A DNA stretch of 18,390 bases, from the UHGV virus genome UHGV-1669119, one strand, 5' to 3'. Shown in pieces: positions 11,351 to 17,885 of the stretch. Origin of the DNA: a virus. Every line of letters starts with the position of its first letter. The stretch's first letter is position 1. The position numbers and the translations under genes are program-made. The notes beneath the pieces are model-generated. The model was not told the DNA's origin. It made no database searches and saw only the letters and a list, made by a program, of their open reading frames with translations.

Positions 11351-11620
11351 TTAAAATTCATTGAATTTAAAAAGACATTTCCCTATTGGATTGCCATAGT
11401 CTCTACATACCGAAATGCTGTCCCATACAGGCTGAGCCAAACACCCAAGAAAGAACCCAATAAGCGCAAAAATTATAATTTTGGGAAGAACACGATCCTT
11501 AGGACCTTCTTCACGTTCGAGCCATGCGCCACCAGCCCGAACTATTCTCCCTAAAATATAAAGAATGGGGAAAGCAATAATACCTATCAATGAAAGTATT
11601 CCGATACCAAAGCTAAACAC
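11351..11620 (-). CDS. Small membrane protein (89 aa, two predicted transmembrane helices), antisense to the surrounding operon
   Basis: GTG start 11618-11620 preceded by AAGGAG at 6-nt spacing; hydrophobic segments FGIGILSLIGIIAFPILYILG and IIIFALIGFFLGCLA; low GC; convergent with the 212-aa ORF and divergent from polA. Confidence 0.55.
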   Translation of the reverse strand: MFSFGIGILSLIGIIAFPILYILGRIVRAGGAWLEREEGPKDRVLPKIIIFALIGFFLGCLAQPVWDSISVCRDYGNPIGKCLFKFNEF

Positions 11621-13954: not shown

Positions 13955-14176
13955 ATGTCATTTAAATATCGGGACAGTCCGCTTTATTACCGGGCTGCGA
14001 GGGAGGCCTTGCGCCTTGAGCAGTCCGGCGAATATGACCGGGCAGCGAAGGTCTGGGCCAAGGCTAACCGCCAGTCACGTAACGAACTGAATCAGGACTG
14101 GAGCGAACGCCGGTCTGATTTTTGTCTGATGCAGAACATGCGCGAAAAGCGTAAGGCGGTGAGCGATGACTTGTGA
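13955..14176 (+). CDS. ANR-family-like small regulator (73 aa)
   Basis: Track ORF 13829..14176; ATG 13955 with GGAG 8 nt upstream. MSFKYRDSPLYYRAAREALRLEQSGEYDRAAKVWAKANRQSRNELNQDWSERRSDFC fits the ANR pattern as I recall it (Y..AA..A..E..G.Y..A..W..A ... W ... C). Confidence 0.5.
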   Translation: MSFKYRDSPLYYRAAREALRLEQSGEYDRAAKVWAKANRQSRNELNQDWSERRSDFCLMQNMREKRKAVSDDL

Positions 14177-14648
14177 GCAGACCATTCTTGACATGTGCTG
14201 CGGCTCTCGTATGTTTTGGTTCGACAAGGAGGACAAGCGCGCCGTGTTCAGTGATATCCGCGCCGAGCAGCATGAGCTTTGCGACGGTCGCCAGTTGGTT
14301 ATAAGTCCGGACCTTATAGCTGATTTCCGCGCCCTTCCCTTTGCCGATAACACTTTCCCTGTCGTCGTTTTCGATCCGCCGCACCTCGAGCGCGTCGGCG
14401 ATAACGCATGGATGAGGAAAAAGTACGGGCGGCTCAACAAAGAAACATGGCGCGATGATCTTCGCGACGGCTTCGCCGAAGCATTCAGGGTATTGCGGCC
14501 CCACGGTGTACTCATATTCAAATGGAACGAAACGCAGATCCCGGTAAGCAATATCTTGGCGCTGACCGACGAGAAGCCGGCCATATGGCAACGAACCGGA
14601 AAAGCCGACAAAACCCACTGGGTTATTTTCGTCAAAGGTGTGGAATGA
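14166..14648 (+). CDS. Small SAM-dependent DNA methyltransferase (N6-adenine / N4-cytosine class, DPPH motif)
   Basis: Motif I-like LDMCCGS and motif IV VVVFDPPH; 160 aa; start overlaps the ANR-like stop (ATGACTTGTGA) and stop overlaps the VRR-NUC start. Confidence 0.6.
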   Translation: MTCEQTILDMCCGSRMFWFDKEDKRAVFSDIRAEQHELCDGRQLVISPDLIADFRALPFADNTFPVVVFDPPHLERVGDNAWMRKKYGRLNKETWRDDLRDGFAEAFRVLRPHGVLIFKWNETQIPVSNILALTDEKPAIWQRTGKADKTHWVIFVKGVE

Positions 14649-14941
14649 TGGCCTACGAACGTGAAAGCCTTATCGAAAAGCACCTCGTCGCCGAAGTGAA
14701 AAAGGCTGGCGGGGTCGCCTTTAAGTTCGTGTCACCCGGTCGCCGCTCGGTACCGGATCGCATTGTCCTGCTACCCGGCGGTCGCATCGTCTTTGTCGAA
14801 TGCAAAGCGCCAAGCAAACCACCACGGCCTGACCAGTTACGCGAGCACGAACGGCTGCGCGCGTTGGGCTTTACCGTGGTGGTATTAGATAGCAAAAATC
14901 TGGAGGGGATATTGTGCGGGGAGCCTATTACAACGAAATAG
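14645..14941 (+). CDS. VRR-NUC domain nuclease
   Basis: Track ORF 14522..14941; probable start ATG 14645 (MMAYERESLIEKHLVAEVKKAGG...). PD-(D/E)XK core PDRIVLL...IVFVECKAP typical of VRR-NUC. Confidence 0.65.
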   Translation: MMAYERESLIEKHLVAEVKKAGGVAFKFVSPGRRSVPDRIVLLPGGRIVFVECKAPSKPPRPDQLREHERLRALGFTVVVLDSKNLEGILCGEPITTK

Positions 14942-15942
14942 ACCCTAACGCAGCACAATGGCTGCGTAACCTTATTGCTGCAGGTCATATCGCCCCGGGT
15001 GAAGTTGATGAAAGGAGTATCGAAGATGTCGCACCAGACGACTTGCGCGGATTCACACAGTGCCATTTCTTCGCCGGGATCGGCGTCTGGTCTTATGCTC
15101 TGCGTCTGGCCGGATGGCCGGATAACAAACCGGTCTGGACAGGAAGTTGCCCGTGCCAGCCTTTCAGCTCGGCTGGTAAAGGCGCTGGGTTTGATGACGA
15201 GCGGCACCTATGGCCAGCACTATTCCACCTCATCAGCGAGCGACGCCCTAAGCTGGTATTTGGCGAACAGGTTGCGGGAGTCAATGCCTGGTTCGATCTT
15301 GTACAAACTGACGTGGAAGCAGTGGACTACGCCTTTGGGCTTGTCCCGTTTCCGGCTGCGGGCGTCGGTGCCCCGCATATCCGAGATAGAGCGTATTGGG
15401 TGGCCGACGCCAGCGGCGAGCGATCACAGCGGTGGCGAAAGCGCCTCAATAGCATTGAGGAAGATGTCTGGAGATCGTCGACCGTCCGGCAACACGCTAC
15501 ACAGCTCCCTGCGGAATTTTGCTCACCTAGCGGGGTGGTACACCCCAACCTGCAACACAAACCCACAGCCGGAGACAAAACGCGGTCTAGAAACCTTAGC
15601 GGGACTATCCAGATTAGCGGGATGGCCGACAGTGACGACGATCGACAACAACCAAGTTCGTGCCGAGGGCGCAGCGGCCAATCATACCGAACGGGGAACG
15701 ACCCTCGGCGGCGCTGCGAGAATCTGCGGCCCAATACGATTAACGGCTGCTGGGATGGTGCTGACTGGCTCCTCTGCCGGGATGGTCGCTGGCGGCCAGT
15801 TGAATCCGGCACATGCCCGTTGGCTAATGGGATTACCTCCAGAGTGGGACGACTGCGCGCCTACGGCAACGCGATAGTCGCACCAGCTGCCGCAACATTC
15901 ATCCGCTCGTTTATGGAATGCGCAGGATACGACCTTATTTAA
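14914..15942 (+). pseudogene. DNA cytosine-5 methyltransferase whose central segment (about 15396-15860) lies in a different reading frame from its N- and C-terminal motifs
   Basis: Frame 1 (GTG 14914, GGAGG upstream) carries motif I FFAGIG, motif IV PCQPFS, motif VI-like GEQV and motif [11 protein letters not shown], then after about 15860 motif X YGNAIVAP. Motif IX ([16 protein letters not shown]) and the repeated GWPTP-type motifs are in frame 2 (track ORF 14975..15877). Both frames are stop-free, so a 342-aa polypeptide is still encoded. Confidence 0.55.
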
Positions 15943-16259
15943 TGCCACTCACATCTGGCATGATACCGTCCAGAAGGTAATTGCTTATATACAACGGAGC
16001 CGCCCATGGCATAAGTATAAGCATGAAGTTTTGTCCAGAAGTCCCCATAAACTAGTATTGGGGCTAAAAATTTTGGATCGCTAACCATAGATGTAGCAGG
16101 AAGCTCGAAACCTTTAGAAAGAATGTTTACCAGTGAAGGGTAATTTTCAAAATCAGTGCTATTCCCGCCCACCTCTAAAGCATCCAGTTCAAAGTCGAGC
16201 ACTCCACCATTTTTGTAATACTCCGGAACAGTTAACCCTGATGTTAACAAAGTAGCCAT
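15939..16259 (-). CDS. Hypothetical protein (106 aa) in a low-GC island, antisense to the flanking genes
   Basis: ATG 16257-16259 with AGGAGG 8 nt upstream; island 15943-16290 is visibly AT-rich (roughly 40% GC by eye) against GC-richer neighbours; stop overlaps the C5-MTase stop. Confidence 0.5.
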   Translation of the reverse strand: MATLLTSGLTVPEYYKNGGVLDFELDALEVGGNSTDFENYPSLVNILSKGFELPATSMVSDPKFLAPILVYGDFWTKLHAYTYAMGGSVVYKQLPSGRYHARCEWH

Positions 16260-16293
16260 TAAACAATCCTCCTGAATTTTAAAGGGTTACATT

Positions 16294-17688
16294 ATGCCCA
16301 AAGTTTTCACGCCTCGCCCCTACCAAGATCTAATTATCAACCACGAAATCGACATTCACCGCTGCAACATCTGGGCAGGGATGGGGATGGGTAAAACCGT
16401 AGCGACACTCACCACGCTGGAAGATCTTTTCATGGCGGGCTCAGAGACACAGCCCGCGCTGGTCCTCGCGCCCCTACGCGTTGCAGCAAGCACATGGCCG
16501 GATGAAGCGCTGAAATGGGGGCATCTGCGCAATATCGAGGTGCAGCCGATTGTTGGTAACGCCAAAGCACGCTCTGCAGCGCTGGCGAACAGCAACGCGA
16601 GCGTGTTCACCATCAACTACGATAACCTTGTCTGGCTGGTTGAGGAATTGGGAGAACGATGGCCGTTCGGTACTGTCATTCCAGATGAAAGCACCCGGCT
16701 AAAATCCTTCCGGCTGCGAGGTGGTGGTAAGCGCGCGGCGGCGCTGGGCAAAGTGGCGCATAAGTATGTCCAGCGCTGGATAAATCTCACCGGTACGCCA
16801 GCACCGAACGGCCTGGTAGATTTGTGGGGACAATTGTGGTTTGTGGACCAGGGGCAACGTCTCGGGCGCACTTACGGCGCGTTTACCTCACGCTGGTTCA
16901 ACTCGATACAGTTTCCGGGGCAGAGCTGGACCAAACTGGAGCCGTTTGCTCACTCACATGCTGAAATACAGCGAGCGTTAGCCGATGTGACCCTCTCGCT
17001 GGATGCGGCCGACTGGTTCGATATCAAAGACCCCATCCATAACGTAATCCGCGTGGATATGCCGCCGAAGGCCCGTCAGCAGTATCGTGAAATGGAAAAG
17101 GAAATGTTCCTCGAGCTGAACGGCGAAGGCATCGAAGCACCAAACGCCGCGGCAAAGACACTGAAGTGTCTGCAAATCGCCAGTGGCGCAGTATACACAG
17201 ACGACACCGGAAGTTGGTCAGAACTGCATGACACCAAACTACAAGCGCTGGACAGCATACTGACCGAAGCAGCTGGCGCACCTGTGCTGGTTGCTTATCA
17301 CTGGAAACACGATCTTGAACGCTTGCTTAAAGCATTCCCTCGCGGTCGTCACCTCGACCAAGATCCACAGACACTGCGCGACTGGAATTCCGGAAAGATT
17401 CCTGTTCTCTTTGCACACCCAGCCAGCGCGGGCCACGGTCTGAACATGCAGGACGGCGGAAACATACTGGTATTTTTCTCACACTGGTGGGACCTGGAGC
17501 AGTATCAGCAAATTATTGAACGTATCGGCCCCACCAGGCAGATACAGGCCGGACACAATCGTCCGGTATTTATTCACCACATTATTGCGGCCGACACTAT
17601 GGACGAAATGGTGATGGAGCGGCGCAACTCAAAACGAACAGTGCAGGACATCCTGCTCGATGCCATGAAAAAGAGAGGTATAGCATGA
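16294..17688 (+). CDS. SNF2-related DEAD/DEAH-box helicase (phage replication/recombination helicase)
   Basis: 464 aa; Walker A GMGKT, motif II VIPDESTRLK, helicase C-terminal motifs; commonly co-encoded with DUF2800, DUF2815, PolA and VRR-NUC. Confidence 0.8.
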   Translation: MPKVFTPRPYQDLIINHEIDIHRCNIWAGMGMGKTVATLTTLEDLFMAGSETQPALVLAPLRVAASTWPDEALKWGHLRNIEVQPIVGNAKARSAALANSNASVFTINYDNLVWLVEELGERWPFGTVIPDESTRLKSFRLRGGGKRAAALGKVAHKYVQRWINLTGTPAPNGLVDLWGQLWFVDQGQRLGRTYGAFTSRWFNSIQFPGQSWTKLEPFAHSHAEIQRALADVTLSLDAADWFDIKDPIHNVIRVDMPPKARQQYREMEKEMFLELNGEGIEAPNAAAKTLKCLQIASGAVYTDDTGSWSELHDTKLQALDSILTEAAGAPVLVAYHWKHDLERLLKAFPRGRHLDQDPQTLRDWNSGKIPVLFAHPASAGHGLNMQDGGNILVFFSHWWDLEQYQQIIERIGPTRQIQAGHNRPVFIHHIIAADTMDEMVMERRNSKRTVQDILLDAMKKRGIA

Positions 17689-17885
17689 GCGAGAAACCCG
17701 ACGATTTACTCACCCCAGATGAAGTATGCCAAAAGTTAGGTATTACACAGAAAACGCTATGTGAGTGGAATATTAAGCATCGTCATCGGGCTATCCTGGC
17801 ACCAATTCGTTTCAGTGCAAAAGTAGTTCGTTATGAGCGCCGAAATGTCGACGCTTTTATTCAAAAGTGTCGCAGCCAGTATTAA
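17685..17885 (+). CDS. AlpA/excisionase-like helix-turn-helix protein (66 aa)
   Basis: LLTPDEVCQKLGITQKTLCEWNIKHRH...APIRFSAKVVRYERRNVDAFI fits the small excisionase/AlpA HTH pattern; ATGA overlap with the helicase stop. Confidence 0.5.
   Translation: MSEKPDDLLTPDEVCQKLGITQKTLCEWNIKHRHRAILAPIRFSAKVVRYERRNVDAFIQKCRSQY

Follow-up and report, generated by a model that had tools for sequence, protein, structure and literature searches.

The p106 cassette and its slot

The window, which is the whole 18,390-nucleotide stretch of viral DNA analysed (UHGV virus genome UHGV-1669119), matches, at 100% identity, a prophage that uropathogenic E. coli strains such as BH100, F11 and Ecol_542 carry integrated beside yfhL. 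On one strand of this prophage a LexA-family repressor precedes an operon (in order: DUF2800 nuclease, DUF2815 single-strand-binding protein, Nmad5, PolA-type polymerase, ANR, SAM methyltransferase, VRR-NUC, C5 methyltransferase, SNF2 and an AlpA-like gene), and the opposite strand carries a Cro-like gene, VapE primase, Q, lysis genes and terminase. Between the C5 methyltransferase (C5-MTase) and the SNF2 helicase lies one gene in antisense orientation, here called p106, whose product is entered in RefSeq as a hypothetical protein (Table 1). The first-pass annotation, made from the letters of the window, had described an AT-rich island of about 350 bp that holds a single minus-strand gene of 106 codons with a strong AGGAGG ribosome-binding site and a stop codon overlapping that of the C5-MTase. 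This description was borne out: the island was recovered as a low-GC cassette with edges within 3–4 nt of those first given (15943–16293), the Shine-Dalgarno sequence precedes the ATG (16259–16257) at the expected place, and the TAA of p106 and the TAA of the C5-MTase are interlocked in a TTAA at 15939–15942. Only 34 nt separate the ATG of p106 from the divergent ATG of SNF2 (16294). The cassette is poor in GC compared with its flanks of 0.55–0.58 (C5-MTase 0.584, SNF2 0.550) and with the whole window (0.505), and the GC3 of the p106 ORF is 0.35 versus 0.61 for SNF2. Across related copies the Shine-Dalgarno sequence is mostly GGAG or AGGAG and is weakened in three (L008, L059, L061).

Table 1. 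Features of the p106 locus in window coordinates
Feature	Coordinates	Strand	Remarks
VRR-NUC nuclease	14648–14941	+	Conserved left-hand anchor of the slot
C5 cytosine DNA methyltransferase	14914–15942	+	PF00145, phrog_363; convergent neighbour of p106
p106 CDS	15939–16259	−	106 aa + stop; RefSeq WP_000212683.1; phrog_28127 member
Exchangeable cassette	15939–16290		352 bp, GC 0.409; blastn breakpoints versus L002 and L003
Upstream block	16260–16379	−	About −120 to −1; 34-nt spacer + first 29 SNF2 codons, antisense
Shine-Dalgarno AGGAGG	16268–16273	−	8 nt 5′ of the p106 ATG
Candidate −10 CATAAT	16291–16296	−	Overlaps SNF2 start codon; putative transcription start near 16284
SNF2-family helicase	16294–17688	+	PF00176, phrog_62; divergent neighbour, conserved right-hand anchor of the slot
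Alternative candidate −10 GATAAT	16333–16338	−	Putative; inside SNF2 codons 14–15

In a blastn comparison with the BstA-carrying sister prophages at yfhL, homology ends at 15938 and resumes at 16291. In place of the p106 cassette, these sister E. coli prophages have a 1,046-bp cassette with a minus-strand gene of 309 codons that encodes BstA, an abortive-infection protein, in full length (PADLOC E 2.5e-110). The first-pass annotation had proposed that presence or absence of the island be checked in related prophages. The 5′ end of SNF2 was matched in 154 of 5,426 complete E. coli genomes, and only 20 of these carry the p106 cassette (all at least 99.7% identical, single-copy and at the same position). 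Other E. coli prophages of the family, which lack the C5-MTase, have alternative cargo between VRR-NUC and SNF2; the alternatives seen in the slot are a set of three minus-strand genes, one of which encodes the candidate defence protein PDC-S42 (E 4.7e-40), a minus-strand hypothetical gene of 195 or 265 codons, and an Arc/Arc/Rha block. The region upstream of SNF2 is also highly variable in 37 SNF2-anchored loci from other species, and SNF2 itself stays 90–97% identical in amino acids among the enterobacterial prophages compared, irrespective of cargo. The C5-MTase is cargo too, being missing in the Klebsiella, Pectobacterium and Enterobacter relatives and in many E. coli prophages. Because the breakpoints are sharp and the cargo between the two anchors is so varied, the interval from VRR-NUC to SNF2 is a cargo hotspot in which much of the cargo is antisense and p106 is one alternative.

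The evidence thus supports reading the feature as a moron, an accessory cassette that is self-contained and holds a single gene, in a cargo hotspot of a temperate enterobacterial phage, as had first been suggested: a discrete, compositionally foreign, antisense gene that is present in some syntenic prophages and absent with sharp boundaries from others.

Several observations concern the rest of the window and the neighbouring prophages. In the sister prophages with BstA (L002/L003 4361-4471, E. coli), BstA is located between a methyltransferase and SNF2, not downstream of the prophage repressor, the SAM-dependent methyltransferase of the window (14166–14648) is replaced by a DUF4406 gene, and in strain EL361 the methyltransferase next to BstA is frameshifted. 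A second small antisense gene of the window (11351–11620, minus strand; 89-aa hypothetical protein WP_000490741.1, GC about 0.41) lies between Nmad5 and the PolA-type polymerase and is probably the "first" moron to which the earlier annotation alluded; in the Klebsiella and Pectobacterium relatives the matching position is taken by a different small antisense ORF. At 17685–17885 (plus strand) a 66-aa HTH_17 ORF (AlpA/excisionase-like) overlaps the stop codons of both SNF2 and the integrase; the BH100N record leaves this ORF unannotated, and it is annotated in sister prophages. The replication operons of related prophages carry further cargo, namely a CAP12-PCTIR TIR protein, a Band_7 protein and a DUF4145 protein (L058 6058-6819; L066 6297-7124; L067 6695-7378), and a Pectobacterium prophage (L008 1-3373) adjoins DarT/macrodomain and CbtA/CbeA modules.

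A consensus scan of the minus strand around p106 found no sigma-70 promoter and no intrinsic terminator, and between int and p106 (read-through from int was considered) there is only a weak 5-bp terminator-like site. Ahead of the ATG the cassette itself contributes just 31 nt, and therefore any promoter of p106 must use helicase DNA. Two −10-like hexamers are found there. The first, CATAAT, contains the complement of the SNF2 start codon and is present in all prophage copies (TAAAAT in L068); it is TGn-extended, as TGTCATAAT, in prophages with the 104-aa allele described below and, as TGGCATAAT, in three loci that lack SNF2 (L059, L061, L071). At the equivalent spot the BstA cassette has a perfect TATAAT, directly beside the complement of the SNF2 start codon. 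The second, GATAAT, is kept in most copies (GATGAT in L066, L067 and L087; AATAAT in L058); L068, with its decayed SNF2 frame, has a perfect TATAAT here, and L059 has TGTGATAAT. Neither hexamer has an acceptable −35.

The upstream block travels with p106 into islands outside prophages, and in the three loci without SNF2 homology to the window starts at −116 to −122. We considered above-neutral conservation of this 5′ block of SNF2 as a sign of a promoter and rejected it, since between L061 and L071 the block is 92% identical, the spacer 91% and the ORF 93%; in L068 the block is conserved no better than the rest of the SNF2 pseudogene. That about 120 nt of helicase 5′ sequence travel with the gene fits a promoter in it and is not by itself proof of one. 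The first-pass claim that the promoter must lie within the first helicase codons is thus plausible as to place, and as to signal it comes down to −10-like hexamers in the absence of a consensus.

Conservation of p106 within and outside prophages

p106 matches phrog_28127 as a full-length profile (positions 1–106 of 106, E 1.7e-59), a membership that names the protein but explains nothing, the family being without annotation. Close homologues (64–97% identity) occur in Salmonella, Klebsiella, Pectobacterium, Enterobacter and Buttiauxella, and every complete one has 106 amino acids; the length stays at 104–106 aa in relatives down to about 35% identity and at 104–112 aa in most relatives. A search of 1.84 billion representative proteins found 56 clusters at 50% identity that match the p106 profile (E up to 0.001), most of them single-domain proteins of 102–120 aa, and a metagenome collection was scanned for relatives with a 4-sequence alignment. 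Copies that are 100% identical were found on at least 1,000 contigs. In an alignment of 39 sequences G18, G19, F51, G87 and Y91 are invariant, and E38, L47, G50, P55, W75, Y83 and A101 are nearly so; this reads as a structural pattern of conservation, not a catalytic one.

Among nine close copies the pairwise dN/dS of p106 ranges from 0.06 to 0.18 with saturated dS, and the only exceptions are pairs with the Buttiauxella copy. With its conserved length and these values, p106 is a real gene under strong purifying selection. A stop-riddled ORF in close relatives, which had been named as evidence that would count against the gene, is not what was found: the ORF keeps both its length and its low dN/dS. 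Selection on the Buttiauxella copy (L059/L060) is relaxed or altered, its dN/dS against its closest relatives being 0.54–1.02 versus about 0.1 elsewhere; in its upstream block 11 nt are deleted.

The layout of the locus is constant in the Klebsiella, Pectobacterium, Enterobacter and metagenomic prophages: p106 is antisense, stands 32–35 nt from the ATG of SNF2 and overlaps the stop of the upstream gene by 4 nt. These prophages are without the C5-MTase, and in them p106 abuts VRR-NUC instead; a functional tie of p106 to the methyltransferase was therefore rejected. Prophages in IMG/VR have a second class of alleles, 104 aa long, in which 34–39 of 104 residues are identical to p106 of the window and the GC content is 0.36–0.40 (L082-L085, L087, L088); the geometry is identical and the flanks, including SNF2, are about 94% identical. 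This class is divided into two subtypes that are about 65% identical to each other. The p106 cassette is accordingly not a recent one-off insertion, as the family occupies the exact position in several prophage lineages in the form of deeply diverged alleles. Among the close alleles dN is about 0.2–0.3 for p106 versus 0.03–0.06 for the first 146 codons of SNF2. Given this difference, and the alleles of about 35% identity between flanks of 94% identity, the cargo evolves, or is swapped, much faster than its anchors. Such fast divergence is typical of genes in conflict, and we have no firmer explanation at hand.

Copies outside intact prophages bear on function most directly. At L068-70 SNF2 is a pseudogene (start lost, two stops, a deletion in Walker A, truncation at residue 146) whose dN to intact copies, 0.14–0.18, compares with 0.03–0.06 among the intact copies. 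The p106 gene beside it is intact, and its dN to phage-borne relatives (0.094–0.096) is below that between two intact prophages. At the loci without SNF2 (L059, L061, L071) only residues 1–29 of the helicase are left, and p106 is intact in both L061 and L071. As p106 stays intact in remnants in which the helicase has decayed, its benefit is independent of the helicase and of the lytic cycle. Retention by selection after loss of the phage is the strongest clue to function that these comparisons offer.

In one prophage type an antisense gene of 342 codons accompanies p106 (L067 3396-4424; L061 5646-6674; L071 5650-6677). It has a weak HATPase_c match and a weak similarity to the N-terminus of DrmA, and is intact in one remnant; in L071 this co-travelling gene is broken into three ORFs and p106 is intact. 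In an all-against-all BLAST of the neighbours from about 12 contexts, it was the only gene found repeatedly, being inherited from the one prophage type. A type II toxin-antitoxin module was rejected on this ground, there being no shared partner, and since no neighbour recurs across contexts we infer that p106 acts alone.

The genes around other relatives are diverse. At L068-70 p106 lies directly upstream of Septu (PtuA E 1.5e-230, PtuB E 5.6e-103), and in Dyella a relative is flanked by Lamassu (LmuB E 4.4e-114) and PDC-S06 (E 3e-161) within an integrase/AlpA island. L071 has PDC-S21 (E 6.1e-127) and also ArdC, a methylase and IS3, and a marine relative adjoins a PDC-S35 / CAP12-TIR protein. 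One relative is inside an ICE with TraU and HipA; others are on conjugative Burkholderia megaplasmids in long co-directional arrays of small unknown genes, and distant relatives are in islands with glyoxalase/VOC, MGMT, DUF6615 or zeta-toxin genes. The recurrence of p106 in defence hotspots and islands is suggestive, as a tally of about 18 contexts not set against a genomic background.

The first-pass annotation had judged the protein soluble and without an obvious motif, and neither a transmembrane segment nor a signal peptide nor any known domain is apparent in it. The structure prediction and remote homology search that it recommended gave a confident model without a relative in the PDB, viral predicted structures or domain libraries. 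The AlphaFold2 model, built with the 39-sequence alignment (pLDDT 93.6, pTM 0.84), is a compact alpha/beta domain with strands at 19–25, 88–93 and 99–105, short bridge strands, and helices at 11–17 and through 27–84. Foldseek against viral predicted structures returned nothing below E 0.028, and the PDB gave neither a match in a sequence profile search, even at E 10, nor a fold match. Searches of Pfam, NCBIfam and PADLOC had no match to p106, phrog_28127 being the only family found; a Pfam scan of the 39 aligned members gave scattered sub-threshold matches only. With a cut-off of E 1, p106 matched none of the defence families of PADLOC-DB v2.0.0, where BstA, run alongside as a control, reached 2.5e-110. 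No match was found by tblastn against 50,697 cultured phage records, no credible RNA family by an Rfam scan of 15000–17000, and no mention of WP_000212683 or A0A1A9PE73 in a literature search.

Two candidate identities were rejected on these data. p106 is not a homologue of BstA, with no PADLOC or Pfam match to the BstA domains and a length of 106 versus 309 aa. DNA-mimic anti-restriction proteins of the Ocr or ArdA type are very acidic, with a pI of about 4; p106 has a pI of 5.15 (family median 5.19, range 4.3–6.7) and no sequence or fold match in the PDB.

Possible roles of p106

No known defence family and no solved or viral predicted structure was matched, and therefore the function of p106 rests on guilt by association across the 18 or so contexts. 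We tentatively favour, at somewhat less than an even chance, a lysogen-expressed, non-enzymatic binder that takes part in phage-host conflict, most likely in defence against, or exclusion of, superinfecting phages. p106 would have a transcript of its own that runs counter to the early/replication operon and is driven by a weak or extended −10 promoter overlapping the helicase start. As the orientation of the gene suggests, the lysogen would make the protein, and in lytic growth head-on transcription would silence the gene. The protein would act as a stoichiometric binder, not as an enzyme, and would benefit the lysogen by interfering with a component of superinfecting phages. Counting for defence are a slot common to BstA and PDC-S42, the intact p106 in decayed remnants, and the Septu and Lamassu neighbours. 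Counting against it are the lack of a match to any known defence family or to a solved or viral predicted structure, the lack of a consensus promoter or terminator, the contexts with ArdC and a methylase, in an ICE and on megaplasmids, which fit counter-defence better, and the occurrence of some distant members among ordinary accessory genes. A more ambitious form of the proposal, in which the family (about 105–112 aa) is a new single-protein, non-enzymatic anti-phage system, present as an exchangeable allele at a prophage hotspot, domesticated in defence islands, with its promoter in the helicase start and switched off by lytic transcription, is conceivable and, in our estimate, rather unlikely.

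The rival that survives best, though we consider it unlikely, is counter-defence, by which p106 would be a small inhibitor or sponge carried by prophages, ICEs and conjugative plasmids against host immunity. The protein has the make-up for it, being small and mildly acidic, with conserved aromatics and glycines and without enzyme-like residues, and it evolves fast; its relatives stand beside ArdC and a C5 methylase, in the ICE with TraU and in the Burkholderia megaplasmid arrays, and accessory regions of phages are reported to be rich in anti-defence genes (10.1101/2023.04.06.535777). However, a gene antisense to the early/replication operon would not be co-expressed with early lytic genes, the slot and the orientation are those of BstA and PDC-S42, and p106 is constrained in chromosomal remnants, which no longer contain a mobile element that could profit from it. 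There was also no match among the 50,697 cultured phage genomes, and the protein is too weakly acidic for a DNA mimic. We consider defence the more likely of the two.

More doubtful still is a role in host fitness or immunity unrelated to phages, with p106 hitch-hiking in variable regions as an orphan immunity protein against a polymorphic toxin or as a modulator of stress or physiology. A compact alpha/beta fold with conservation confined to structural residues agrees with such a role, as do the retention in decayed prophages and the distant members in small-gene arrays with glyoxalase/VOC, MGMT, DUF6615 and zeta-toxin; yet no cognate toxin or recurrent neighbour was found, no known immunity family in Pfam was matched, and several contexts contain bona fide defence systems.

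We regard it as improbable that p106 is an internal regulator, in which the protein or the 350-nt antisense transcript tunes SNF2, VRR-NUC or the methyltransferase of its own phage. All prophage copies share an invariant geometry (32–35 nt to the SNF2 ATG, 4-nt stop overlap), and the p106 mRNA would fully complement the operon transcript immediately ahead of the ribosome-binding site of SNF2, but most sister prophages do without p106 and carry unrelated cargo, and the upstream partner varies between the methyltransferase and VRR-NUC. Moreover, p106 persists intact without SNF2, distant members have no SNF2 neighbour, and purifying selection acts on the protein, not only on the RNA. A chance frame or decaying gene in AT-rich filler, to which the missing promoter and terminator consensus and the lack of a known domain might point, is effectively refuted by conservation (dN/dS of 0.06–0.18 with saturated dS, 56 clusters at 50% identity, identical copies on at least 1,000 contigs), by the pLDDT of 93.6 and by a strong Shine-Dalgarno sequence at the correct spacing, and we give it next to no weight.

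With the lysogen-expressed binder as the preferred reading, p106 is a reasonable, unproven candidate for a new phage-conflict gene. Were it to protect lysogens or to disarm host immunity, the repertoire of phage conflict would gain a non-enzymatic family of very small proteins whose fold is unrecognised; were it to do neither, it would be an ordinary hypothetical moron. The cassette makes an easily cloned test case, being 352 bp long and having natural BstA-carrying sister prophages for comparison, and further candidates could be sought in the hotspot between VRR-NUC and SNF2, which belongs to a widespread family of enterobacterial prophages. A hypothetical moron as such will not surprise a specialist; the hotspot, the signal of domestication, the divergence of the alleles and the unmatched fold make this one a good and cheap candidate.

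Comparison with known systems

The locus is of a known kind, prophage hotspot cargo, and the protein family itself is uncharacterised. Among lambdoid phages the morons, a concept of Hendrix and colleagues, include bor and lom of lambda and gp15 of HK97; classical morons have their own recognisable promoter and terminator, and many encode envelope proteins. p106 resembles them as an extra gene of deviant composition and patchy presence between conserved neighbours, presumably expressed from the repressed prophage, and differs in that no recognisable promoter or terminator was found and that its product looks cytoplasmic.

Accessory loci between core genes of phages have been described by Silas et al. 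as carrying fast-evolving, exchanged small genes presumed to be directed against host defences or rival viruses, in a screen that covered cultured phages only and in a study that stressed counter-defence; a P4 satellite hotspot is mentioned in the same work (10.1101/2023.04.06.535777). The p106 slot is likewise a variable locus bracketed by conserved core genes. In contrast to that set, p106 has no match in cultured phages, so that it was probably outside the screen, and the evidence for it leans towards a benefit to the host. Defence hotspots of P2- and P4-like elements were reportedly described by Rousset et al. in 2022. As in these, cargo in the p106 slot is swapped between fixed anchors, and relatives of p106 lie beside Lamassu/PDC-S06 and Septu, whereas the phage is of another type (PolA, DUF2800, DUF2815, VapE, SNF2) and its anchors are VRR-NUC and SNF2.

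The closest concrete analogue of the p106 cassette is the BstA cassette of the same slot. BstA is an abortive-infection family with a proven phenotype (Owen et al. 2021, PMC8585504) and is usually described downstream of the prophage repressor. The two proteins have no sequence similarity (309 aa with a DNA-binding domain versus 106 aa), the BstA cassette brings 110 nt of its own upstream DNA and the p106 cassette 31 nt, and the function of p106, unlike that of BstA, is only predicted. In both cases, however, a single antisense gene of low GC fills the interval from the stop of the C5-MTase to the start of SNF2, and a −10-like hexamer lies directly against the start codon of the helicase.
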